Part shown: positions 32 through 59,868 of the stretch, one piece after another
Position numbering within the stretch: the stretch's first letter is position 1
Layout of the letters: each line of letters begins with the position of its first letter
The notes under the pieces: generated by a model
What the model saw: only the letters and a program-made list of their open reading frames with translations
Told to the model about the DNA's origin: nothing
Database searches by the model: none
NCBI GenBank assembly: GCA_018673485.1
Contig: JABHCP010000001.1
Coordinates: 3,512 to 67,511, forward strand
Direction of reading: 5' to 3'
Source: Candidatus Uhrbacteria bacterium
GTDB taxonomy: Bacteria; Patescibacteriota; Patescibacteriia; UBA9934
Length of the DNA: 64,000 nt
Position numbers and translations under genes: made by a program

Positions 32-355
32 ATGCCACCAAAGCCAAAACAAGATCAACAACTTACAGAACTAAAAAAACTTCGCGAGATGGTTGAGGAA
101 ATAAAAACTGACATCGATGAGGAGACCAATAAACCATTTTGGAAGAAAATGCTCGCAGCGTTTGCAGTCGGCGTTATGCGTGGACTGGGAATCGTAATTG
201 GTACAACTGTGGTAGTAGGAATACTGGTTTATCTCATGCAGGTGTTCATAGACTGGACAGACATTCAAATAGGACTCACCTCTTGGCTATCAGACATATT
301 AGACCAAGGCATAGCTGAGGCAATACCCGCAGGAATATCATCATTAATAAAATAA
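32..355 (+). CDS. hypothetical small membrane protein
   Basis: 107 aa ORF with a charged N-terminus followed by hydrophobic helices (AAFAVGVMRGLGIVIGTTVVVGILVYLM); no recognisable family. Confidence 0.4.
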   Translation: MPPKPKQDQQLTELKKLREMVEEIKTDIDEETNKPFWKKMLAAFAVGVMRGLGIVIGTTVVVGILVYLMQVFIDWTDIQIGLTSWLSDILDQGIAEAIPAGISSLIK

Positions 356-476
356 AAAACACCCCGGAGAAATCTGGGGGATTTTTTTGTTTAAAGTGTT
401 TTCCGTCTGTCATCCTGAGACTCCACGAAGGATCTATTTGAAAGTATCTATTATCAAAGTTCTAATCAAACCTAAC

Positions 477-4749: not shown

Positions 4750-5030
4750 GTCTGGGGGCACTTCGTCCCCCAAACCCCCAAGACTTACTTTCTTTGTTCG
4801 CCTCAAAGAAAGTAAGCAAAGAAAGAGCGGTCGCGGGTCCCACGCCCTATATCCATTTCAATATTGGAAACCTGATTAATTTAAATAGGTATAGGGCTGC
4901 AGTCAATGTTTTTGGGTGACTATGAATGAACTGATTGCCAGCTCGGTCGGCAGGCTCCCTCTCAGACGTGGTTGTCTGACAATGAGTGAACGGAGAGCTA
5001 ACTACTGTAACATTGCCGGGGGACTTAGGT
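4750..5030. repeat. structured ~280 nt repeat element, copy 1 (candidate ncRNA or MITE)
   Basis: About 140 nt of near-identity plus conserved hairpins match the reverse complement of 57061..57340. It sits in a 710 bp spacer separating ftsA from ftsZ. Confidence 0.6.
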
Positions 5031-5222
5031 TAAAGCACATAAACCGCCTTTCGGCGGTTCATTAAACTGTTTTCTGCCTACCGCACTACTACTTATTCTG
5101 TCGTTCCTCCACAGGAATTGCGCATGATCCAAGTGCGCAGTGCTCAGGAGACAAAAAAGCCGAGCATAGACTCGACTCCCAACTGCGCACAGCGTACTGA
5201 GCACCGTGAACTAGCCCTCCAA

Positions 5223-6473
5223 TCACGGAATCAATGACTTCATCCACTTTCGTAACTGATCCGCGACCTGATTAACACCCTTGATATTTAATAAATTGAA
5301 CTTTCCACCATGAGCGCCACGTATAGCAAATCCCCAAAGTGTAAGACCGACAGCCGTCGCATAGGCACTATCTTGCACCTCATCGATAACGCTAGTAACT
5401 CCAATTGGTTTACCGATAGTTGATGGCAATCTCAGCACTCGCTTTGAAACATCAGCCACGCCCGGTAGATGCATTGTCGCACCCGTTAAAACAACCCCAA
5501 CTGGCAGCATTCCAGACCGATCAACCTTACGAAGTTCGTCATCAATATTCTCAAATAACTCCTCAATTCGAGCTTCAATAATTTCTGATACAAATCTAAC
5601 CTTTATCATCTCATCTTCAGTTGATCCAAAGTCAGCTAGTGAGAACTGAGCCTTTCTATCTACATCGTCTGGAACTGCATTACCAAACTCTCTCTTTACC
5701 TTCTCAGCGACTTCCAGTGATGTTCTAAGCCCGATAGCAATGTCATTGGTCAAATGATCCCCTCCAACAGGTAAAACCGCTGTATGGAGGATGTCACCTT
5801 CTTCAAAGACAACCATACTCGTTGAAGATGCACCGATGTCAATCACACATACTCCAAGCTCTTTTTGTCTTTGTGTGAGCACAGCCTCCGCAGTTGCTAG
5901 TGGAGTAAACACAAGATCGTCAATATCCAATCCGGTTCTATAAATTGTCTTGGTAAGATTCTTGATTTGAGATGAAAGTGTTTGAATAATCACCGCATCA
6001 ACCTCTAGTCTTATTCCACTCATGCCAACCGGGTCCTTGATTCCGTGCTGCCCGTCCACTGTGAAACTCTTTGGAATCACATGCAAAATCTCAAAATTCG
6101 ATGGTGTAGCCACGGTTCTAGCGGCCTCAATAACTCGCTCTACATCTTCTTCACGAATATCCGTATCTGCTCTGGCAATTCCAACCACTCCATGGCTCTC
6201 TTGCACAAATATATTATGCCCGGCAATTGAGACCCACGCACCATTTACTGCAACTCCTGTCATGCGCTCGGCGCGCTCTAATGCCTTTGAAACAGAAGAT
6301 ACCGCATCTTCCATAGAAGACACAGTTCCTTTATGTACGCCCTCTGATGGAACAGAAACGGCTCCGGTGATGTGTAATTGTGGTTTTCCGGTTTCATCAG
6401 GTACAACCTGACCTACAACCACACGTATTGTGGATGACCCAATATCTAACCCTGTGATGATCTCCTCTGCCAT
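5223..6473 (-). CDS. ftsA: cell division protein FtsA
   Basis: MAEEIITGLDIGSSTIRVVVGQ actin-like ATPase; 416 aa. Confidence 0.9.
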   Translation of the reverse strand: MAEEIITGLDIGSSTIRVVVGQVVPDETGKPQLHITGAVSVPSEGVHKGTVSSMEDAVSSVSKALERAERMTGVAVNGAWVSIAGHNIFVQESHGVVGIARADTDIREEDVERVIEAARTVATPSNFEILHVIPKSFTVDGQHGIKDPVGMSGIRLEVDAVIIQTLSSQIKNLTKTIYRTGLDIDDLVFTPLATAEAVLTQRQKELGVCVIDIGASSTSMVVFEEGDILHTAVLPVGGDHLTNDIAIGLRTSLEVAEKVKREFGNAVPDDVDRKAQFSLADFGSTEDEMIKVRFVSEIIEARIEELFENIDDELRKVDRSGMLPVGVVLTGATMHLPGVADVSKRVLRLPSTIGKPIGVTSVIDEVQDSAYATAVGLTLWGFAIRGAHGGKFNLLNIKGVNQVADQLRKWMKSLIP

Positions 6474-9011: not shown

Positions 9012-9920
9012 CTATCCTAATGGGTCGTATCCTCCAATGACCTCTGTGCCGTCATCATAACCATCGCCGTCTGAATCTGGATTTGTTGGGTCTGTTCCGT
9101 GCAAGCGAACTTCTTCATAATCTGACAAACCGTCATCATCTGAATCTGAATCTTCATCACTTGTTCCCTGATATCTTTCTTCGTCAGCGTCCAATCCATC
9201 AAAATCTTTATCACCTGGCCCCACCATTTCAAGACAGGTATATTTATATTCTCGGATCCCAACTAAATAACATTTAGTTGGGTCTTGAGCTTCAATTGCC
9301 TCAGCCATAATTGCACCATATTTACATTGCGCGTCAGATATAATCTCATTATCGCAATTGCCGTTAATGCTTGCGTTTTGAGCCCACAATGCATGACAAT
9401 TATCAACTTTTTCTGAACTAGAATACTCCTCGCAATCACTGTAGGTATAATCATCACTCATTGTTTGAGTCACTATGGCATCACCACAACTATCCCTTGT
9501 TTCTTGATCTTCAATTTTTTTACAATCATCGGCATCTAAGGATGTCAAAGCGGATAATGCTGCGCACGAATCATAATCATCACCTTCAAGCTCATCACAA
9601 TAAGCGGTGTCACCAGTTTGTTGAGCCAACCGTGGAGCAGCACTTGCAATACATTTCTCTACGTCATCAGCACTCTGACATGACTCAATATAAAGCCTTG
9701 TACTTTGCTCAATATCGTTGCTACTACTGAAAAATGAACTAATCACAAACATTAACAACCAAACAACAAGGCCGATGACAATAATCGCACCAATGACTCT
9801 CCTAATAAGCACTCGATGCATTAACAGCCTATCTCTAAGACTGATAGTCTTCTCACCTTCTTGATCAATCTCATACCAATCAACCTGCTTTTCATCAAAT
9901 TGTTTTTGTTCGTTTTTCAT
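9012..9920 (-). CDS. single-pass membrane protein, Cys-rich ectodomain plus C-terminal TSP3-like repeat module
   Basis: Transmembrane helix VIGAIIVIGLVVWLLMFVISSFF, many Cys, DSDSDDDGLSDYEEVRLHGTDPTNPDSDGDGYDDGTEVIGGYDPLG. Confidence 0.6.
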   Translation of the reverse strand: MKNEQKQFDEKQVDWYEIDQEGEKTISLRDRLLMHRVLIRRVIGAIIVIGLVVWLLMFVISSFFSSSNDIEQSTRLYIESCQSADDVEKCIASAAPRLAQQTGDTAYCDELEGDDYDSCAALSALTSLDADDCKKIEDQETRDSCGDAIVTQTMSDDYTYSDCEEYSSSEKVDNCHALWAQNASINGNCDNEIISDAQCKYGAIMAEAIEAQDPTKCYLVGIREYKYTCLEMVGPGDKDFDGLDADEERYQGTSDEDSDSDDDGLSDYEEVRLHGTDPTNPDSDGDGYDDGTEVIGGYDPLG

Positions 9921-26007: not shown

Positions 26008-26075
26008 CCATCCCGAGCACAGCAAGGGATCTTCTAATTAAGAAGATTTCTCCCCCGTCAGACGGGGTTCGAAAT
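26008..26075. repeat. degenerate copy of the aaRS 3'UTR-type hairpin repeat
   Basis: Shares the ATCCCGAGC, GGGATCT and CCCCGTCAGACGGGG hairpin motifs with 29190..29296 and 51745..51852. Confidence 0.4.
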
Positions 26076-26113: not shown

Positions 26114-26560
26114 TTACTCACTTAACAATCTTGCCAACATCGCTTTCACGCGTTTGCCGTCGACCTGACCCTTGAGTTCTTCCATAACTTTACCCATCGC
26201 CTTGCCCATGCCCGACATGTCACCGACTTCAAGTTCGTCAATCACTTTCTTTACCGCCTTTTCTAAATCTTCCTCTGACATCTCAGGTGGTAAATACTTT
26301 TTTAAAACCTTCATTTCAGATCGTGCCTTGTCAGCCAAGTCCTCACGCTCCCCTTTTACAAAACTCTCAAGTGAGTCTTCGATCTTTTTCACGTCAGACT
26401 TAATCACTGCAACAACGTCAGCGTCCTCAAGCTCTTCCTTTAAATCAATTACTTTATTCTTAAGTGAGGCCATGAGCATTCGCAAAACACTAAGCGTCTC
26501 GGCATCCCTTCCCTTCATCGCTACCTTGATGTCATCAGATATTTTTTCGTACAAATTCAT
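26114..26560 (-). CDS. GatB/YqeY domain protein
   Basis: 148 aa; MNLYEKISDDIKVAMKGRDAETLSVLRMLMASLKN is typical of YqeY. Confidence 0.8.
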   Translation of the reverse strand: MNLYEKISDDIKVAMKGRDAETLSVLRMLMASLKNKVIDLKEELEDADVVAVIKSDVKKIEDSLESFVKGEREDLADKARSEMKVLKKYLPPEMSEEDLEKAVKKVIDELEVGDMSGMGKAMGKVMEELKGQVDGKRVKAMLARLLSE

Positions 26561-29063: not shown

Positions 29064-29189
29064 ATTTGATAGACCATGCTCCCTTATGGAAGTACCAGCT
29101 TTCTACCAAATATTAGCCACTTTGTCAACCCAAAAACCCGCCGTTTCCGACGGGTTTTTAAATTATTGTACTTCTATCCCCTCTTCGAC

Positions 29190-29296
29190 CGACATCTGGG
29201 TTCTGAATTATTGAGATCCCTCGGCTTCGACCCGTCTGACGGGTCTTCGCTCGGGATGACGGCTTCTGGAGTGCTGTTATCCGCTGCCGTCACTTA
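29190..29296 (-). repeat. conserved structured 3'UTR element abutting the hisS stop codon
   Basis: On the RNA sense strand it begins at the UGA stop: UGACGGCAGCG..GCCGUCAUCCCGAGCGAAGACCCGUCAGACGGGUCGAAG..GAGGGAUCU. It is homologous to the element after aspS. Confidence 0.6.
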
Positions 29297-30612
29297 CCTC
29301 CCAATTGCTTCTGAACAAGATCAACGACTTTGTCCATGTTCACAATCTCTTGTCCGCCGGATTCCATATCGCGAATGATAATTGTGCCGTCGAGAACTTC
29401 TTTTTGTCCAAGAATGAGTGCTATCTTTGATTTTCGTTTATCTGCCATCTCGAGCTGAGTTTTCAGTGAGCCCTTTCCAAAAGCCTCGGCGATCTTTACG
29501 CCTGCTGTACGGAACTCCTCAAACACTACCAACCCTTTACGCCGAGCAGCGTCGCCCAACTGACAGAAGAACACATCAATCTCTCGATCCTTTGGCAAGA
29601 CAACACCCTGGTTTTTCATTGCTCGGATAATTCGCTCAACGCCCATGGCAAGCCCTATCGCGTGAGTATCCTCACGTCCACCAAGCTGTTCAATCAATGT
29701 GTCATATCGTCCACCGCCACCTAGAGCGTTCTGAGACTTCACGCCTTCATCGTCAACCTGCACGATCTCAAATACTGTGCGTGTGTAGTAGTCCAAACCT
29801 CGTACCAAAAACGGATCAAGTTCATATGGCACTTCAGCTTCGTCAAGATATTCAATCACTGTCATGAAGTGCTGCTTTGAGTCTTCATCAAGCCAGTCTA
29901 AAATCTGTGGAGCGTCAGCTTTAAGCTCGGCCATTCCCTCTTCTTTTGAATCAAGTAAACGCAATGGATTTTTTGTAAGACGTTTCTTATCAACGTCAGA
30001 CAACTTTTTGCGAAACTGCTTAAAGTAACTTACCAACTCCATAATATACTCACGACGAGAATCCTCTGTTCCGATTGAGTTGATTAGGAACTTTGACTTC
30101 ACTCCCAAGCCTTGCAACATGCGGTGCGCCATAATAATCATCTGCGCGTCCAAGATAGGGTCAGCTGACCCAATTGCCTCCAATCCAAATTGATGAAATT
30201 GACGATATCGACCAGCCTGCGGTCGGTCGTGTCTAAACATCTGACCAAAGTACCACATCTTTACTGGCTGTGGCTTATTAAGCATTCCGTGCTCAATATA
30301 CGCACGCGCAACTGAAGCTGTAGCCTCAGGTCGCATTGTAACTCTAGCCTCACTCGGATCCTTGAACGTATACATTTCTTTTTCAACAATGTCTGTCGCT
30401 TTTCCAACCGATCGTTCAAACAAAGTTGTTGGCTCCAAAATCGGCAAACGAATTCTGCCAAAACTATAATCAGTCGCAACATTGCGCGCTGCGTCCTCAA
30501 CAGCGTTCCAATACGCCTCGTGCTCAGGTACAACATCCTTAAACCCACGCAAACTTTGTGGAGTCTTAATCTTTTTCTTTACCACCTCCTCTTTATCGCT
30601 CTGTGCATTCAT
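29290..30612 (-). CDS. hisS: histidine--tRNA ligase
   Basis: Class II motifs, GGGGRYDTLIEQLGG, 440 aa. Confidence 0.95.
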   Translation of the reverse strand: MNAQSDKEEVVKKKIKTPQSLRGFKDVVPEHEAYWNAVEDAARNVATDYSFGRIRLPILEPTTLFERSVGKATDIVEKEMYTFKDPSEARVTMRPEATASVARAYIEHGMLNKPQPVKMWYFGQMFRHDRPQAGRYRQFHQFGLEAIGSADPILDAQMIIMAHRMLQGLGVKSKFLINSIGTEDSRREYIMELVSYFKQFRKKLSDVDKKRLTKNPLRLLDSKEEGMAELKADAPQILDWLDEDSKQHFMTVIEYLDEAEVPYELDPFLVRGLDYYTRTVFEIVQVDDEGVKSQNALGGGGRYDTLIEQLGGREDTHAIGLAMGVERIIRAMKNQGVVLPKDREIDVFFCQLGDAARRKGLVVFEEFRTAGVKIAEAFGKGSLKTQLEMADKRKSKIALILGQKEVLDGTIIIRDMESGGQEIVNMDKVVDLVQKQLGGK

Positions 30613-37665: not shown

Positions 37666-37687
37666 TAATTTAAACTTCATCCCCGTC

Positions 37688-37756
37688 TCATCATCCCCAC
37701 CTCGACGTCCCATCCCCCACTCGACGTCTCATCCCCACCCCGACGTAAGGAGGGGC
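37688..37756. repeat. three tandem ~18 bp direct repeats ending in an inverted-repeat arm upstream of the GIY-YIG gene
   Basis: tcatccccacctcgacgtc / catcccccactcgacgtc / catccccaccccgacgtaaggaggggcc. The arm CCCGACGTAAGGAGGG reappears inverted at 38094..38112. Confidence 0.6.
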
Positions 37757-37768
37757 CTCGGCTGTCTC

Positions 37769-38086
37769 ATGAAACTATCGGTCAGCCGTGAAACTCAAAC
37801 TATGCACTTCATCTATATAACAACAAACAAAAACAATTCCGTAATATACACTGGCACCACCAGTGAATTGAAACAAAGAATATATCAACATAAAGAAAAA
37901 ATGGTGGATGGATTTACGAAAAAATACAATGTCGATAAGCTAGTATACTATGAAGCAATTGAAGATCGGAATTCAGCGCTAGCTCGAGAAAAACAAATCA
38001 AAGGCTGGCGGCGAGAGAAAAAAATGCACATAGTTCTATCAATGAACCCAAATTTATTTGATTTGTACGAAACTTTAGATCAATAA
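37769..38086 (+). CDS. GIY-YIG nuclease superfamily protein (small stand-alone)
   Basis: FIYITTNKNNSVIYTGTTSELKQRIYQH GIY-YIG motif. The start could instead be the ATG at 37802 (MHFIYI). Confidence 0.8.
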   Translation: MKLSVSRETQTMHFIYITTNKNNSVIYTGTTSELKQRIYQHKEKMVDGFTKKYNVDKLVYYEAIEDRNSALAREKQIKGWRREKKMHIVLSMNPNLFDLYETLDQ

Positions 38087-38189
38087 GTTTTTAGGTCCCT
38101 CCTTACGTCGGGATGGGTAACTGCTAATACCACTAAGCATTGTGAACTACCTACTGCATTCCTTCACAATATGATACATTGTAAATCCT

Positions 38190-48272: not shown

Positions 48273-48333
48273 TTGTCATCCCGAGCATAGTCGAGGGATC
48301 TCTCGACTCACTCCGTTCGCTCGAGATGACGAT
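48273..48333. repeat. palindromic repeat (GTCATCCCGAGC...GCTCGAGATGAC)
   Basis: Inverted arms flanking a GTCGAGggatctCTCGAC hairpin. Confidence 0.6.
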
Positions 48334-51302: not shown

Positions 51303-51744
51303 ATTATAGCAAAGGGATTGAGGGTATTAAAGGGATTGAGGGGACTATTTGCACAAAGACTGCGAACATGATGAAATAGACTCGCTTGCCCCTTTTTCTC
51401 TGCACACGGAGTTCAGCATGATCATGCACCAAAAAACGATCGTTGAGATCGCAGCTACGGTTGCCGTATGGCTCGGTGCACTAGCAGCTGCACCCACTTG
51501 CATCGCATGCGAAATCTCTGGATACGCCGCGCCAATCTTGGAACTGCTCATACTAGCGATTATTTCGTTTTTGATCGCTGTGCGCATCTGTACGTTCAAG
51601 ATCGAAATCTACCTCGAAGCCGTCAATCTCGAAACGCGCTACTTGTTCGACCTCGCGCGAAGCGGCGCACCCCTACCCCAGGATTCAGTCCTGGGGTGAT
51701 TTGCATCTAAAACAAAAGAACCGATCGTGTGACCGGCTCTTTCC

Positions 51745-51852
51745 TGAACTCTGTAATCAGTAGATCCTTCGACTCCCTTCGACCCGTAAGACGGGTCTTC
51801 GGTCACTCAGGATGACGGTTTCTGGAATGCAACTATTCGCTACCGTCACTTT
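51745..51852 (-). repeat. conserved structured 3'UTR element abutting the aspS stop codon
   Basis: On the RNA sense strand: UGACGGUAGCG..ACCGUCAUCCUGAGUGACCGAAGACCCGUCUUACGGGUCGAAG..GAAGGAUCU. Homologous to the element after hisS, with compensatory base changes. Confidence 0.6.
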
Positions 51853-53267
51853 TTAATCTCAATATTCGCCTCGCTCAGTGCTTTCTCGGAAAGTGCGGAT
51901 GGGGCGTCCATCATGAGGTCTCGGGCGCTTCCGTCTTTTGGAAATGCTATAACTTCTCGGATGTTTGGCTCGTTTTGCAAAATCGCCATGATCCTATCCA
52001 TTCCAAGTGCTAATCCACCATGCGGTGGTGCTCCGTATTCAAATGCTTGCAGCATGGTGCCAAATTGAGCTTCGATCTGCTCCCCCTCAAATCCCATAAT
52101 CTCCAGCGCCGCTTTCAATAACTCCGGCTTGTGATTACGGATACTCCCTCCACCGACTTCAAATCCATTCAATATAATATCGAACTGAGGAGCGATGATA
52201 TTCTCGACGTTCTTCTTTTCAAGTAAATCACTTTCAAACTCTGGCTTTGCCGCAGAGAATGGATTGTGAGTAAATGTCCAACTCTGCCCTGAGCCTGTCG
52301 AAGGGCCGCCATTATCGTCTTTTTCAAAGAATGGGAAATCGACCACCCAACAAAACGCGAGCAAATTCGGATCATCTTTATCCTCACGAAGATCGGGCCT
52401 ATCATTGCCATACTTCTCCATAGCTTCTGCATAACTCATTCGCGGAAATGGCTTTTGCTGAATTTTCTTTTCAGGATAATTATTCTCAACTACCTTTATC
52501 ATCATCTCCTCGATCAATCCTATTACATCCTCCTCTTGCACAAAGCTCATCTCAAGATCCATCTGTGTAAATTCTGGCTGTCTGTCACCACGTTGATCTT
52601 CATCACGGAAACACTTTGCCATCTGGAAATACCGCTCAACACCAGACGTCATCAAAAGCTGCTTAAACTGCTGCGGCGCCTGTGGTAACACATAAAAATT
52701 CTCAGGATGAAGACGTGACGGAACAATGAATTCTCTTGAACCCTCTGGAGTTCCCTTTGTAAGCTGTGGCGTTTCAATTTCGATAAAATCTTTATCACTC
52801 AAAAATTGTCGCATTGCCTGAAATACTTTGTTTCGATTTCGAATGTTTGTAGCCATTCGTTCAGATCGCAAATCAAGGTATCGATATTTAAGTCGAACGT
52901 CCTCACCTACTGCCGATGTGTCTTTATCTAATTCAAACGGTGGAGTCTTTGCTTCGTTTAGAACTGTAATCTTTTTTGCCAAAAGCTCAACTGTTCCGGT
53001 TGGGATCTTGTTGTTAATCTGACGTTCACCTCGCTTTTGAACTACGCCTTCAATCTCTACAACCCACTCAGGTCGAAGAGTCTCGGCAATCTTTGTTCCT
53101 TCTTCTCCCAAATCAGCTGGAACTCCCACAATTTGCAAAAGACCGTCCTTATCACGAAGATCAAAAAACATGATCTTACCCATGTCGCGTCGCGCATGAA
53201 TCCATCCGGCTACTTTTACAGTCTCCTCTGCCTTGCCGACAGTTTCTGAAGTAAATATTCGTTTCAT
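51846..53267 (-). CDS. aspS: aspartate--tRNA ligase (compact, lacks the GAD insertion)
   Basis: OB-fold N-terminus, motif 2 CFRDEDQRGDRQPEFTQMDLEMSF, motif 3 GGLALGMDRIMAIL; 473 aa. Carries a repeat-derived in-frame insertion GGPSTGSGQSW. Confidence 0.9.
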   Translation of the reverse strand: MKRIFTSETVGKAEETVKVAGWIHARRDMGKIMFFDLRDKDGLLQIVGVPADLGEEGTKIAETLRPEWVVEIEGVVQKRGERQINNKIPTGTVELLAKKITVLNEAKTPPFELDKDTSAVGEDVRLKYRYLDLRSERMATNIRNRNKVFQAMRQFLSDKDFIEIETPQLTKGTPEGSREFIVPSRLHPENFYVLPQAPQQFKQLLMTSGVERYFQMAKCFRDEDQRGDRQPEFTQMDLEMSFVQEEDVIGLIEEMMIKVVENNYPEKKIQQKPFPRMSYAEAMEKYGNDRPDLREDKDDPNLLAFCWVVDFPFFEKDDNGGPSTGSGQSWTFTHNPFSAAKPEFESDLLEKKNVENIIAPQFDIILNGFEVGGGSIRNHKPELLKAALEIMGFEGEQIEAQFGTMLQAFEYGAPPHGGLALGMDRIMAILQNEPNIREVIAFPKDGSARDLMMDAPSALSEKALSEANIEIKK

Positions 53268-54350: not shown

Positions 54351-54495
54351 GTACCGTCGTGAGACCCCGAGCACATCGAGGGGGAGAAGTCTTCTTGAGA
54401 CTAGATGGAACTTAGAAGATCTCTCCCGTTGGTCGAGATGGGGACTAAATACTCACCACTTCGACACATCGGAGAAGTCTTCTCGAGATGGTACG
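54351..54495. repeat. ~145 bp inverted-repeat element with internal duplication
   Basis: CGTACCGTCGTGAGA...TCTCGAGATGGTACG termini; internal duplicated GAGAAGTCTTCTYGAGA units. Confidence 0.55.
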
Positions 54496-57667: not shown

Positions 57668-58276
57668 TTGTATCATTATTATTTAAATGCTATTTTTAGA
57701 TATATGCATATTAAAACACACAAAGTAGAAGTATTTAGCGAACCATGTTCTTTAGAATTAATGCACTTCGATGATACTGATCGAGTTAAATGGAAACAAT
57801 TATTTGATCAATGGAAATCTTTAAAAATGGGAATGAGAGAATACAAATCCAGAGAACCAAATTTTCCAGAGGGCTTATCAGAAGTAGCCTTTTGTCTTCA
57901 CTCAGGTTCTGGTAGATTCATTAAACTTAAGGGAAATAGCAAAGCATCGTTCGATACCTTCGACCTACAAGACAATCGATCAGAACAAATAAAGGCCTGT
58001 AGCGTAGAGTACGATCTCACATCCTTCGGTCCGAAATCCGTTTGGGACGACATCTATTTTCTGGACTTTTTCAATGAAGGTTTGCTGGATGGTAGATTTG
58101 ATATTTATCAGATACCAACAGATCTGATCTTGAATATGAAAGTAAATAAAGATCAAACTGTAGCTGATCAGCAAAATCAAGGTAGGAGACCAAGATTTAG
58201 TATCAAAAGGAAAATTATAAAAGAATTAAACATCAAACCCATCGCTACAAAAGTGACGGTTTGGAAGAAAGACTAG
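57668..58276 (+). CDS. hypothetical protein, candidate restriction endonuclease partner of the adjacent methyltransferase
   Basis: 202 aa, AT-rich; convergent and overlapping by 4 bp with the 3' end of the C5-MTase gene; the start may be the ATG at 57706. Confidence 0.4.
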   Translation: MYHYYLNAIFRYMHIKTHKVEVFSEPCSLELMHFDDTDRVKWKQLFDQWKSLKMGMREYKSREPNFPEGLSEVAFCLHSGSGRFIKLKGNSKASFDTFDLQDNRSEQIKACSVEYDLTSFGPKSVWDDIYFLDFFNEGLLDGRFDIYQIPTDLILNMKVNKDQTVADQQNQGRRPRFSIKRKIIKELNIKPIATKVTVWKKD

Positions 58277-59868
58277 GAATTCAAAGCAAACTTCATTTTC
58301 TTCGCGATCGCTCTTAGAACTGGAACTGAAACTGAATTTCCAAATTGTTTATATAAAGCAGAGTCAGCCAAATGCTCAGGAATAATATACGAATCAGGAA
58401 AACCCTGAATTCTTGCACATTCACGAGGCGTCAACTTTCTAATACCATTCTCATCTTTTATTATAGGAACATTGTGTCCGCCTGTACCCATATTGGCAGT
58501 TAAAGTTGGGCAGACGCCTTTTTTATTTTCCCTTACATATTTTCGCCTCCACTGATACACTTTCCCGAATTCCTTTACGTCATCTTTAATTTTCTCATAA
58601 AGTGGCTTACCGTTATAATAATACTTATCGTCTACCTTGGATTCCAAAATGTCTGTTATTTTTACTTTCAACTCTACAGGATCTGGAAAGCTGAAATTAT
58701 TCAAATGATCAGCATTCAAAAAACCTACAATATAAATTCTCTCACGATTTTGCGGGACATTGCCATAATCCATGGTGTTTAAAACCTTGGAGGAGACGGA
58801 GTACCCCAGACTCTGCAATGTCTCTTTGATGATTTTGAATGTTTTTCCTTGATCATGTCCTTGAAGATTTTTAACATTCTCTAGTAGAAAGGCCTTTGGC
58901 TTTCGAGTTTCTAATATTCTCGCTACATCAAAAAATAAGTTCCCTCTTTCTTTCTTGTCATCAAATCCCTGCCTATATCCAGCGATAGAAAATGCCTGAC
59001 ATGGAAAACCACCCAATAATATATCAAAGTCCGGCAAATCATTTTCATGGATATTTCGAATATCCTCAACAACTAATTTTGAAGTTCTAAAATTTAAATC
59101 ATAAGTATCTTTACACTTTGGCTCATAGTCGTTTGCAAAGACTGTCTCAAAACCTTCCGCCTCGAATCCCAATCTAACACCACCCACACCAGCGAATAAA
59201 TCTACTGTCTTAAATGAATTGGTCACCTCCATACTATCTTTATTATTTTTATCTTTTGAAAAATTTCTTATAACTCTAATTACAACGCCTCTAACCTCCA
59301 GTTCCTTTACGAAAATAGGTAAAATATTCTGATTAGCTGGTTGCAATCTATAACCATCTTTTAACCTATATATTTTCTTTAATGTACAAGTGTCATCTTC
59401 TAGAATAGCTACCACTGTTTGTCCATTCTCAGGAGATATTTGTGGTTTTATGATAACGATATCGCCATCAAAAATTCCATCGTCTATCATGCTGTCCCCC
59501 TTCACCCTCAAGGCATAACAATCTTCACGCCCCGACAATAGACTACTAGGAACCTCTATCAAATCGGTTTCATCTTCCAAGACTTCAATGGGCTTCCCGG
59601 CAGCTATACTACCTTTAACTGGAATTAATATTGTATTTGTATCTACCTTCAACGATATTGATCTTGGTATATGGTTGGATCCTTCAATATAACCCTTCTT
59701 CACTAAAGCCTGTACATGCTGATGTATCGTGGAATTCGATTTTAATCCTACCAGCCCCCTAAGCTGATTTATTGTTGGAGGAATGCCGTCCTCTTCAATA
59801 CCACTTTTGATAAATTCTAGGATTTCGCTTTGCCTATTTGTTAAACGTTCATTCACCATATAAAGCAA
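58273..59868 (-). CDS. LexA (HTH + S24 autopeptidase) fused to DNA cytosine-5 methyltransferase
   Basis: N-terminus with LexA wHTH (INQLRGLVGLKSNSTIHQHVQALVKKGYI), AAG cleavage site, GDSM Ser and TLKK Lys of the S24 dyad. C-terminus with C5-MTase motifs I DLFAGVGGVRLGF, IV GGFPCQAFSIAG, ENV, QNRERIYIVG and GNSV. Confidence 0.85.
   Translation of the reverse strand: MLYMVNERLTNRQSEILEFIKSGIEEDGIPPTINQLRGLVGLKSNSTIHQHVQALVKKGYIEGSNHIPRSISLKVDTNTILIPVKGSIAAGKPIEVLEDETDLIEVPSSLLSGREDCYALRVKGDSMIDDGIFDGDIVIIKPQISPENGQTVVAILEDDTCTLKKIYRLKDGYRLQPANQNILPIFVKELEVRGVVIRVIRNFSKDKNNKDSMEVTNSFKTVDLFAGVGGVRLGFEAEGFETVFANDYEPKCKDTYDLNFRTSKLVVEDIRNIHENDLPDFDILLGGFPCQAFSIAGYRQGFDDKKERGNLFFDVARILETRKPKAFLLENVKNLQGHDQGKTFKIIKETLQSLGYSVSSKVLNTMDYGNVPQNRERIYIVGFLNADHLNNFSFPDPVELKVKITDILESKVDDKYYYNGKPLYEKIKDDVKEFGKVYQWRRKYVRENKKGVCPTLTANMGTGGHNVPIIKDENGIRKLTPRECARIQGFPDSYIIPEHLADSALYKQFGNSVSVPVLRAIAKKMKFALNS

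Follow-up and report, generated by a model that had tools for sequence, protein, structure and literature searches.

Two tRNA synthetase genes end in copies of a composite hairpin element

The window, by which we mean the whole 64-kb stretch of DNA analysed, carries hisS and aspS on its minus strand. Both genes terminate in AAG-TGA (stop codons at 29292-29290 and 51848-51846, respectively) and each is followed directly by one copy of a composite element, copy A after hisS and copy B after aspS (Table 1). The two copies share a layout in which a 5' hairpin (hairpin 1) precedes a repeat unit of the form GTCATCCyGAG...GArGGATCT with a nested GACCCGU/ACGGGUC hairpin (hairpin 2), and both lie in the sense orientation of their gene, between stop codon and terminator. 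They are 81% identical over 75 nt (E=9e-5, within the window), and the hairpin-2 pattern has two matches in the window against 0.09 expected. No further composite copy was found in 13.4 kb added to the window (77 kb in total), so that the only two composites in 77 kb follow the only two aminoacyl-tRNA synthetase (aaRS) genes found there, a coincidence whose probability, estimated post hoc for random placement among ~60 genes, is about 6e-4.

A sequence-only reading of this DNA had proposed a homologous structured element of about 107 nt beginning at the UGA stops of both genes. Its homology is confirmed on the minus strand, and its length is reduced because the last ~24 nt align poorly: the copies correspond over 80 nt in A and 88 nt in B, starting at the final base of the Lys codon and extending through GGATCT. 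RNAalifold recovers the compensatory change that had been noted in stem 1 (C-G in A, U-A in B) and adds a second one in the outer stem of the unit (AUCCC/GGGAU versus AUCCU/AGGAU), with 20 pairs in common and none broken. Hairpin 2 is identical except for its loop (CAG in A, CTT in B) and each copy is followed by a separate terminator, both as had been described; the terminator after copy A is homologous to the one directly after hisS in a relative (L008). Folded singly as RNA, copies A and B give z=-2.8 and -3.0, and as single-stranded DNA the composites fold on either strand, the complementary strand equally well.

Table 1. Genes, composite copies, repeat units and terminators in the window
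Feature	Position	Strand	Sequence or description
Simple unit, TGTC tag	407..434	+	TGTCATCCTGAGACTCCACGAAGGATCT; 53 nt past stop of ORF 32..355(+)
Degenerate unit pair after ORF 26114..26560(-)	26008..26075	.	26075->26038(-) CCCATTTCGAAC-CCCGTCTGACGGGG-GAGAAATCT; 26008-26030(+) CCATCCCGAG..GGGATCT
Bidirectional intrinsic terminator, downstream of copy A	29132..29161 (29161->29132)	.	AAAAACCCGTCGGAAACGGCGGGTTTTT
Composite copy A, directly after hisS	29214..29293 (29293->29214)	-	G-UGACGGC / 22-nt loop / GCCGUCA-U, then unit GTCATCCCGAG..GAGGGATCT with nested hairpin
Copy A unit proper	29214..29260	-	GTC tag, stem ATCCC, GAGC, apical insert, CCGA, stem' GGGAT, C-T
Copy A hairpin 2 (apical insert)	29229..29245	-	GACCCGT-CAG-ACGGGTC, inside invariant core GAAGACCCGTNNNACGGGTCGAAG
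Copy A hairpin 1	29256..29293	-	5' arm GTGACGGC (29293-29286), 3' arm GCCGTCAT (29263-29256)
hisS	29290..30612	-	TIGR00442, E=1e-135
Four tandem partial repeats and left arm of 25-nt inverted repeat (37734-37758)	37677..37758	+	TCATCCCCACCYCGACGT (partial repeats)
Single-domain GIY-YIG nuclease gene, 94 aa	37802..38086	+	Pfam PF01541, E=5e-19
Right arm of inverted repeat around GIY-YIG gene	38093..38117	-	CCCATCCCGACGTAAGGAGGGACCT on minus strand
Tail-to-tail unit pair between convergent genes	48275..48330	.	48275-48300(+) GTCATCCCGAG..GGGATCT; 48330->48297(-) GTCATCTCGAG..GAGATCC
Intrinsic terminator, downstream of copy B	51714..51743 (51743->51714)	-	
Composite copy B, directly after aspS	51762..51849 (51849->51762)	-	
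Copy B unit proper	51762..51816	-	GTCATCCTGAG..GAAGGATCT
Copy B hairpin 2	51781..51797	-	GACCCGT-CTT-ACGGGTC
Copy B hairpin 1	51812..51849	-	GTGACGGT (51849-51842) pairs with ACCGTCAT (51819-51812)
aspS	51846..53267	-	NF001750, E=4e-188
Further unit-like repeat	54414..54442	-	CCCATCTCGACCAACGGGAGAGATCTTCT

What had been called stem 1 is an inverted tag (TGACGGy) pairing with the real tag (rCCGTCA). In copy A, the 5' arm is this inverted copy and includes the hisS stop codon, while the 3' arm includes the CGTC tag (29261-29258); a head-to-head tag junction in locus L019 is comparable to these arms. Hairpin 1 is not the leftover of a complete inverted unit, because conserved coding sequence lies upstream of TGACGG. 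We also rejected readthrough or a SECIS at the UGA: the C-termini of hisS and aspS coincide with those of their relatives, and two codons past the aspS TGA copy B contains another stop, TAG, in frame (in copy A, the frame stays open for 46 codons past the hisS TGA). A plus-strand ORF at 29076..29378 was rejected as a real gene, since it overlaps both the terminator and the 3' end of hisS and only some assemblies call it. Rfam, at gathering and at permissive thresholds, returned no family for the element, only tRNAs and terminator look-alikes; a scan of viral contigs anchored on hairpin 1 gave chance matches only, inside high-GC coding sequence; and a literature search with the sequence strings of the repeat gave nothing beyond primer coincidences.

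The composites contain units of a dispersed palindromic repeat

The unit consensus consists of a (C/T)GTC tag, a stem starting A-T, GAGC, an apical part, CGA, the complementary stem and a C. At least seven unit loci are present in the 64-kb window, 16-53 nt from stops, and inverted dimers occur at 48275-48330 and 26008-26075; these dimers are the degenerate relatives that the sequence-only reading had pointed out, and they proved to be real unit pairs. At 48275-48330, each unit is sense to the gene before it, 16 and 23 nt past the stop, and the minus-strand unit of the other dimer is of the same type as those of L139 and L140. The tag reads CGTC in A, B and 48330(-), and TGTC at 407 and 48273. 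GTC directly precedes the palindrome and C directly follows it in copy A (CCGTC-ATCCC...GGGAT-C) and copy B (CCGTC-ATCCT...AGGAT-C), a rule that also holds at 409, 48275 and 48330 and in L134, L147, L148 and L151. Every unit has A-T followed by T-A as its first two stem pairs, and the stem itself varies (ATCCT 23, ATCCC 16, ATTCT 9, ATTCC 4, plus others). Two G.A pairs occur in the nine-position stem, loops or inserts measure 3-34 nt (26-34 nt for the apical inserts of A and B), and the tails are CTC, CTA or CTN. Isolated simple units are thermodynamically unremarkable hairpins (z~+0.5).

We scanned a genome collection with a generic pattern (GTCATCCYGAG-N3-14-GACCCGT), for which the matches listed come from phyla other than that of the source lineage. 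Among the matches listed, the unit forms inverted pairs and tandem arrays in many phyla. Both the unit and the hairpin-2 core stand behind unrelated genes. The hairpin-2 core was found in 20 metagenome loci, nested in outer stems that differ from one another yet remain complementary. Because MAFFT and RNAalifold set the stems of 17 hairpin-2 copies out of register, we compared the pairing energy of own and swapped flanks, a measure independent of alignment register, and found that the own flanks of each copy pair better (permutation p~1e-4). At L141, the last four codons and the stop of an L7/L12-like gene make up a 15-bp hairpin that continues into a unit. Counting units no more than 120 nt past an ORF stop gave 21 sense-only and 4 antisense-only cases, with 12 at convergent ends; these counts derive from crude ORF calling and are inflated by tandem copies.

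Orthologous loci lack the element

Four hisS lineages (79-92% protein identity) and three aspS lineages (75-84%) are without the element at the corresponding position, and the stop codon at these seven loci is TAG or TAA. Among the hisS relatives, L008 (85%) ends in ...GGK-TAG, followed by a spacer of ~50 nt and the homologous terminator; L007 (92%) carries a canonical Ssn-related motif (SRM) instead, 7 nt past its TAA; and L010-13 (79-80%) have nothing at the position of the element. The aspS gene of L153 (84%) ends in ...IEK-TAG and is followed by a terminator, and L155 and L156 (75-76%) are without the composite. Because none of the seven orthologous loci carries the element and all have TAG or TAA as their stop, sequence comparison identifies copies A and B as lineage-specific insertions. 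Both insertions swapped the native stop for TGA to the base and kept the C-terminal Lys; for this to happen twice, the probability is ~1e-4 if all positions in a 50-100 nt spacer are equally acceptable. No target-site duplication or TIR was recognised at A or B, where the 3' insertion boundary is not definable from the alignments.

Small GIY-YIG nuclease genes lie beside the repeats

The unit family is associated with GIY-YIG genes. Within the window, the 94-aa gene is bracketed by an inverted repeat whose arms are 92% complementary and made of unit-like hairpins, these flanking repeats being of a sister type and not of the exact A/B type. A second GIY-YIG gene, which encodes a protein of 87 aa, adjoins the tmRNA gene, 7 kb beyond the window. 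In L147, 36 nt separate the end of a unit with the hairpin-2 core from the GIY-YIG homologue (47% identity) downstream of it, and in L073, L119 and L071 such homologues have A/B-type units on both sides; these four loci were fetched independently, by DNA pattern alone. We propose the product of the in-window gene as a candidate Ssn-like partner of the repeat family, its family assignment being that of Pfam PF01541 alone. NCBIfam gave no match for this protein, and the nearest PDB entries to the GIY-YIG proteins are the UPF0213 proteins 1zg2 and 1ywl.

The units resemble Ssn-related motifs and CGTC-tagged REPs

The SRM type is the Neisseria NTS (CGTCATTCCCGCGMAVGCGGGAATCYRG), which contains dRS3 and whose partners are single-domain GIY-YIG ssDNA nucleases (Chenal et al. 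2025, PMC11893778). Cleavage by SsnA is governed by the 3 nt upstream of the palindrome, and the key base for its binding is the C after the palindrome; the loop of the substrate is dispensable and extensible, ssn genes are flanked by their own motifs, and the SsnA-type nuclease binds DNA, not RNA (PMC11893778). The units described here share with SRM/NTS the CGTCAT start, a palindromic stem starting A-T, the conserved C directly after it, asymmetric flanks that give an orientation, a variable or extended apex or loop, many dispersed copies and the bracketing of ~90-aa single-domain GIY-YIG genes (in the window and in L147, L073, L119 and L071). The published SRM pattern, HGTCWYN(0-2)YYVSBRHN(0-5)WNVSBRGN(0-2)RNCYNB (PMC11893778), has 0 matches in the window on both strands, while the nearest relatives, L007 and L153, carry canonical SRMs that it matches (L007 at +1795, L153 at -9916 and -6460), with an NTS/dRS3-like TGTCATTCCCGCGAAGGCGGGAATCCAT among those of L153. 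Units A and B differ in having an apical insert of 26-34 nt in place of the 0-5 nt loop of the published pattern and an additional 5' hairpin in which the tag is paired, and the window stem (ATCCY, a tandem G.A and a GC pair) differs from the GC-rich, 7-9 bp stem of the SRM. The host here is a member of the CPR/Patescibacteria, a group unmentioned in that paper's text, and the role of the nuclease here is a predicted one.

The CGTC-tagged REP superfamily, which includes Neisseria dRS3 and Rickettsia RPE-4/RPE-6 (Di Nocera et al. 2013, PMC3733652), is defined by a terminal CGTC tag, with TGTC and CCTC as variants, that lies outside the stem; its stems measure 8-9 bp and its loops 4-5 nt, the unpaired tail of three bases is CCA-like, and no dedicated transposase is reported for it (PMC3733652). 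The likeness extends to the terminal CGTC/TGTC tag, stems that open with A-T, a short unpaired tail, a frequent arrangement in inverted dimers, a location mostly just downstream of ORFs, termini that can supply a stop codon, sporadic occurrence in tRNA synthetase genes and the lack of a dedicated transposase. However, the window stem is interrupted by G.A pairs, loops and inserts are of greater length, and the tail reads CT(N) instead of CCA, which is the tail of the L007 unit and both L153 units; moreover, the tag of A and B is sequestered in hairpin 1 rather than unpaired, and the window holds a tail-to-tail pair, which is rare among CGTC REPs. Compared with REP/BIME and with REPINs and their RAYT (PMC3116915), the units are likewise short extragenic palindromes found in 3' UTRs and between convergent genes, with lineage-specific positions, inverted doublets and covarying stems, but those systems have a GTAG tag and a Y1 (HUH) transposase where we find CGTC/TGTC and a GIY-YIG nuclease. 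Taken together, these sequence features place the units in a family of the CGTC-tagged REP/SRM kind.

Discussion

Copies A and B are, in our assessment, probably lineage-specific insertions of a REP-like hairpin DNA repeat of the CGTC-tagged REP/SRM kind and not an aaRS-specific regulator. The sequence-only reading had offered a selfish mobile palindromic repeat favouring stop contexts as its alternative, which our findings support and sharpen to this kind. By analogy with SsnA and NTS in Neisseria, the tagged strand would fold once single-stranded; the base of the hairpin would be the conserved, recognised part, leaving the apex free, here with an extra hairpin. A small single-domain GIY-YIG nuclease may then bind the folded unit and perhaps nick it a few bases 5' of its tag; the genome holds two candidates for this nuclease, one of them in the window and bracketed by sister repeats. 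Units would gather in the short spacer between stop and terminator, where insertions would be tolerated. The composite, which starts with the inverted tag (TGACGGy), would have landed on a native TAG so that its own TGA became the stop with the Lys intact, and the compensatory changes would reflect either hairpin-preserving selection or copying. The element is transcribed upstream of the terminators; its RNA would likewise be folded, placing the stop codon inside a stem. We infer nuclease recognition and cleavage, the route of spread and any effect on the hisS and aspS mRNAs. The Ssn model explains neither the spread of the units nor stop replacement to the base.

A rather unlikely alternative is a generic REP-like function in RNA, in which hairpins at mRNA 3' ends block 3'-5' exonucleases or modulate translation termination, whatever the gene. 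Liang, Rudd and Deutscher are said to have described, in 2015, a base-paired stop codon with E. coli REPs close to stops. The sense bias of 21 versus 4 would also fit selection on RNA, but it comes from the crude, tandem-inflated count; at convergent pairs (48275-48330 and L141) each gene is followed by its own sense unit, and A and B lie between stop codon and terminator. Although many REPs have been argued to act as RNA (PMC3733652), the asymmetric tag and trailing C match the determinants of a nuclease that binds DNA and not RNA, and units flank GIY-YIG genes. The element is not conserved among close relatives, and therefore any benefit is dispensable.

Less likely still is that the 5' hairpin is itself a selected feature and that the family has a specific interaction with the ends of genes, perhaps favouring aaRS genes. 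In A and B the inverted tag, and in L141 the last codons of the gene, pair with the GTC tag, which would hide the predicted DNA cut site and, at the mRNA level, the stop codon. The hairpin could act as a "safety catch" that makes copies beside essential genes uncleavable, or it could reflect insertion targeted exactly at stop codons (T|AG).

Very unlikely, in our view, is a miniature transposon whose transposase prefers stop contexts, for example by single-strand "peel and paste" 3' of AAGT (AAG-T|AG), with the GIY-YIG association being secondary. Such an activity would match the change from TAG to TGA to the base in two independent insertions with the C-terminal Lys kept, and it would suit the lack of a visible target-site duplication; but these are two events only, and their 3' boundary is not definable. 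Like IS200/IS605 and REP/RAYT (PMC3116915, PMC3733652), the element has hairpins at its ends or close to them, yet none of the 16 window ORFs tested proved to be a transposase gene, and CGTC-type REPs are reported to lack a dedicated one.

An aaRS-specific cis-regulatory or synthetase-binding 3' UTR RNA controlling hisS and aspS, as the sequence-only reading had put forward, is largely refuted by the sequences at orthologous loci and appears extremely improbable: the position of both known composites behind the only two aaRS genes in 77 kb, their sense orientation upstream of terminators and their RNA folding, with 20 common pairs, would suit it, but the element is missing from seven of seven relatives, including those at 92% and 84% identity, has no Rfam match, recurs as a stop-in-hairpin plus unit behind the L7/L12-like gene of L141 and as unit and hairpin-2 core behind unrelated genes in many phyla (among the matches listed for the generic unit and the metagenome loci with the core), folds equally well on the complementary DNA strand and shows no mimicry of tRNA-His or tRNA-Asp, the same GUG and GUC strings being present in A and B and their differences not being gene-specific.

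Reading A and B as insertions of a hairpin DNA repeat removes a tempting false lead, that of a regulatory RNA common to two tRNA synthetases. The composites raise small questions of their own, through two base-exact stop replacements and a hairpin that sequesters the tag. Our findings also tie GIY-YIG genes to the widespread "GTCATCCTGAGCGAAG...GGATC" repeat, a frequent origin of spurious short ORFs. Units such as those in the window are missed by the published SRM pattern, and current censuses therefore probably undercount the family. The element is thereby placed in a recently explained class, hairpin repeats partnered with small GIY-YIG single-strand DNA nucleases, and this class is extended to a lineage of the Candidate Phyla Radiation with a small genome.

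Two homologous structured elements begin at the stop codons of hisS and aspS

The minus-strand regions downstream of hisS and aspS are homologous from the G before TGA to GGATCT (copy A, 29293->29214; copy B, 51849->51762), with 81% identity over 75 nt in a within-window search (E=9e-5). RNAalifold predicts 20 common pairs: an 8-bp stem 1, GUGACGGy/rCCGUCAU, which holds the stop codon, the outer stem AUCCy/rGGAU of a simple repeat unit ((C/T)GTC tag, stem starting A-T, free apex, complementary stem, C), and a nested 7-bp hairpin 2 (GACCCGU/ACGGGUC). Between the copies two pairs are altered on both sides with pairing maintained and none is broken, the fold z-scores of the single sequences are -2.8 and -3.0, and the hairpin-2 pattern matches twice in the window against 0.09 expected. 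With a distinct terminator downstream of each, we confirm what a sequence-only reading had noticed: two structured copies opening at UGA, a compensatory change in stem 1, and separate terminators. An Rfam search of the element gave no family match even at E<=10; folding energies discriminated neither RNA from DNA nor strand from strand, and isolated simple units are not thermodynamically notable.

A 100-aa antisense ORF (29076-29378, +) extends from the 3' end of hisS over copy A and the terminator, and some assemblies (L003, L004) annotate it as a gene, with the repeat translated as ...SLGMT...; it is a typical spurious "hypothetical protein" produced by the repeat family. The loop of hairpin 1 in copy A (29274-29284, -; AGCGGATAACA) matches the E. 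coli lac operator core over 11 nt, a likeness considered coincidental because copy B does not share it (AGCGAATAGTT).

Genes, repeat units and inverted repeats discussed in the text
Feature	Position	Strand	Description
hisS	29290..30612	-	TIGR00442, E=1e-135; end AAG-TGA
aspS	51846..53267	-	NF001750, E=4e-188; end AAG-TGA; AspRS 473 aa
Simple unit	407-434		
Further simple units	26008-26075		
Tail-to-tail unit pair	48275-48330		each unit sense to one of two convergent genes
Further simple unit	54414-54442		
GIY-YIG gene	37802-38086		94 aa, single domain; PF01541, E=5e-19
25-nt inverted repeat bracketing GIY-YIG gene	37734-37758 + 38093-38117		arms 92% complementary
Second GIY-YIG gene	L157:17291-17554	-	87 aa; source contig, some 7 kb beyond the low-coordinate end of the window

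Both copies are insertions absent from orthologous loci

By its HisS and AspS homologues the window falls into Candidatus Uhrbacteria (Patescibacteria/CPR), on contig JABGPN010000017.1 of MAG GCA_018644925.1. Orthologous hisS and aspS loci were fetched at graded distances from the window (percentages are protein identities). The hisS gene of an 85% relative (L008) ends in ...LGGK-TAG, followed by a simple spacer of ~50 nt and a terminator homologous to that of the window, with no element. That of a 92% relative (L007) ends in ...SGK-TAA with a different repeat, TGTCATCCCCGACTTGATCGGGGATCCAG, 7 nt later, and loci at 79-80% (L010-L013) show nothing comparable to the element. At aspS, an 84% relative (L153) ends in ...IEK-TAG with a terminator directly behind, and relatives at 75-76% (L155, L156) are without the composite. 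The C-terminal lysine is native in both genes and the stop codon alone differs, TAG or TAA in relatives and TGA in the window. Given these empty sites, the native lysine and the stop-only change, comparison of orthologous sequences indicates that both copies were inserted in the source lineage and do not represent conserved 3'UTRs. There is no conserved readthrough product across the UGA, since copy B carries an in-frame TAG two codons past its TGA.

In hisS as in aspS, the insertion substituted the stop codon with single-base precision. Were any position in a 50-100 nt spacer acceptable, this outcome would have a probability of about 1e-4; it suggests that a particular target is preferred, or that hiding the stop codon or the tag is favoured by selection.

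At these loci we also observed, in the 79% relatives L012 and L013, a long perfect palindrome (TTCACCCACTTTGGGCCGATCGGCCCAAAGTGGGTGAA) beyond the hisS terminator, about 70-120 nt after the stop, where the inserted sequence is of another type. AspRS (465 aa in relatives) aligns in two segments to the 590-aa profile of bacterial AspRS and thus appears to be without the bacterial insertion domain.

The element is not specific to aminoacyl-tRNA synthetase genes

The sequence-only reading proposed a structured 3'UTR element shared specifically by two aminoacyl-tRNA synthetase (aaRS) genes. The two composites, the only ones in 77 kb, do lie behind the only two aaRS genes found there, for which the probability, assessed post hoc, is about 6e-4 if composites are placed at random among ~60 genes. 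Repeats of the Ssn-related motif (SRM) type also occur near hisS in L007, and upstream (L153) or about 60 nt downstream (L156) of aspS; at relatives' hisS/aspS 3' flanks they number 2/7, window excluded, with roughly 0.13 per gene as background, which is not significant. The aaRS-regulator interpretation is not supported: orthologous loci carry no copy, and in metagenome locus L141 an L7/L12-like ORF ends in ...GAKVTLK-TAA, its last four codons and stop forming the 5' arm of a ~15-bp hairpin (TGACCCTAAAGTAACC/GGTTACTTCAGGGTCA) whose 3' arm continues directly into a unit, GTCATCCCGAGCCAGGTCGAGGGATCT. Units in Breoghania (L019) stand head to head (...CTCAGGATGACG-spacer-CGTCATCCTGAG...), with the TGAC...GTCA junction geometry of stem 1 in copies A and B. 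Stem 1 is thus an inverted tag paired with the tag. Among all structurally detected units lying <=120 nt downstream of an ORF stop, 21 were sense-only, 4 antisense-only and 12 at convergent ends, counts based on crude ORF calling and inflated by tandem copies.

A dispersed family of tagged hairpin units

Simple window units follow the form GTCATCCYGAG-N-GArGGATCT, and the degenerate relatives noted earlier at 26008..26075 and 48273..48333 are real: both sites contain units. In a genome-collection scan, the generic unit GTCATCCYGAGCGAAGCGArGGAyC occurred, among the matches listed, in Acidobacteriota, Verrucomicrobiota, Chloroflexota, Armatimonadota, Bacteroidota, Parcubacteria and others, often as long inverted pairs or tandem arrays. 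The hairpin-2 core GAAGACCCGTNNNACGGGTCGAAG as sole query retrieved 20 metagenome loci, where it is invariant inside outer stems that differ in sequence and keep complementarity (ATCCT/AGGAT, ATCTC/GAGAT, ATTCC/GGAAT, GCCCT/AGGGC, ATTTC/GAAAT, CCGCT/AGCGG and others). In a test independent of alignment register, 5' flanks paired better with their own 3' flanks than with those of other copies (-7.9 vs -5.6 kcal/mol, permutation p~1e-4). Other apical inserts are also seen in the same basal frame; the hairpin base is thus conserved in form (tag, trailing C) and the apex free. Hairpin 1 is carried only by the source organism's own contig (L142), with no further copy in the window, 13.4 kb of added flank or viral contigs.

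In three high-GC metagenome contigs (L133, L144, L149) the invariant core GAAGACCCGTCNGACGGGTCGAAG lacks the GTCAT-type base and sits in other surroundings, which are homologous among the three (...gcgccgttacc...tcagc-core-agctggatgtgggaggcgtcga...); here the core may be intragenic or part of another structured element. L136 has two tRNA-Ser-like 5' halves (GGAGGGGTGGCTGAGTG...; 4975-5100 and 5460-5585), and behind each of them lies a unit that has the hairpin-2 core and stem GCCCT/AGGGC. ARAGORN's sole call there is a normal tRNA-Ser further on (5643-5733), and the halves may be tRNA pseudogenes or a tRNA-linked repeat.

CGTC-tagged REPs, short palindromic repeats defined by Di Nocera et al. 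(PMC3733652), have a CGTC/TGTC tag, stems starting A-T and a 3-nt tail, occur mostly as inverted dimers, predominantly just 3' of ORFs and often <20 bp away, and have no dedicated transposase; their termini sometimes supply the stop codon, occasional copies lie within tRNA synthetase genes, and Neisseria dRS3 and Rickettsia RPE-4/6 are members (PMC3733652). The Neisseria repeat NTS, CGTCATTCCCGCGMAVGCGGGAATCYRG, is the target of SsnA, a 94-aa single-domain GIY-YIG nuclease that binds it exclusively in single-stranded DNA form (neither dsDNA nor RNA is bound) and cleaves a few nucleotides upstream of it. Cleavage depends on the three bases that precede the palindrome, the C that follows it is the most important base for binding, and the loop tolerates extensions, its identity being dispensable; SRMs lie near 71% of ssn homologues (Chenal et al., PMC11893778). 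Window units share these determinants: GTC, a palindrome A...T, then C, and a free apex. Nothing in the window fits the degenerate SRM pattern as published, so the units are not SRMs by that definition. The pattern does fit the L007 repeat located 7 nt beyond hisS, and two sites in L153, indicating that the clade carries the canonical family too; one of the latter (9889-9916, -; TGTCATTCCCGCGAAGGCGGGAATCCAT), in the recO-aspS spacer of this CPR genome (GCA_964452565.1), is nearly identical to Neisseria NTS/dRS3.

GIY-YIG genes are flanked by related repeats

The inverted-repeat arms around the window GIY-YIG gene are unit-like (CCCAyCCCGACGTAAGGAGGGrCC) and four tandem partial repeat copies lie upstream, a repeat-gene-repeat layout as described for ssn genes. 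Of 139 loci (0.99 Mb) retrieved solely by DNA pattern, five encode a GIY-YIG homologue. The homologue in L147 shares 47% identity, and 36 nt before its gene ends a unit that contains the hairpin-2 core and is almost the same as those of copies A and B; units flank the homologue on both sides in L073 (identical units, 103 and 200 nt away), L119 (74 and 306 nt away) and L071 (arrays). These four flanked homologues are the strongest evidence that the A/B-type unit is the partner motif of this GIY-YIG clade.

The second GIY-YIG protein is UPF0213-like (PDB 1zg2, E=3e-14); it is encoded downstream of smpB and of the tmRNA gene (L157 17713-18098), 159 nt from the latter, and the interval contains degenerate unit-like sequences, e.g. 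GTCCTGAGCGCACGAAGTAAGTCGAAGGGC. The 3' ends of tmRNA genes are classic integration sites, and this gene may be a small inserted module. Elsewhere in the window (58273-59868, -), a fusion of LexA-like DNA-binding, peptidase S24 and DNA methylase domains adjoins a Bsp6I-type restriction endonuclease gene (annotated in L158), an unusual restriction-modification architecture.

A model for the origin of the two copies

The alternative already raised from sequence, a selfish mobile palindromic repeat at stop-codon contexts, is supported, and the element can be assigned to the CGTC-REP/SRM kind as a variant in a CPR bacterium. In the best-supported account, units would be REP-like, strand-oriented hairpin motifs acting as single-stranded DNA and, by analogy with SsnA, recognized by an Ssn-like GIY-YIG nuclease of the same genome, accumulating in spacers from stop codon to terminator. 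A composite variant, inverted tag first, would have inserted at the TAG of each gene, hisS and aspS, and provided the TGA. Lying upstream of the terminators, the element would also be transcribed, and in the folded mRNA stem 1 would enclose the stop codon; like other REPs, the element may act there as an exonuclease barrier or affect termination.
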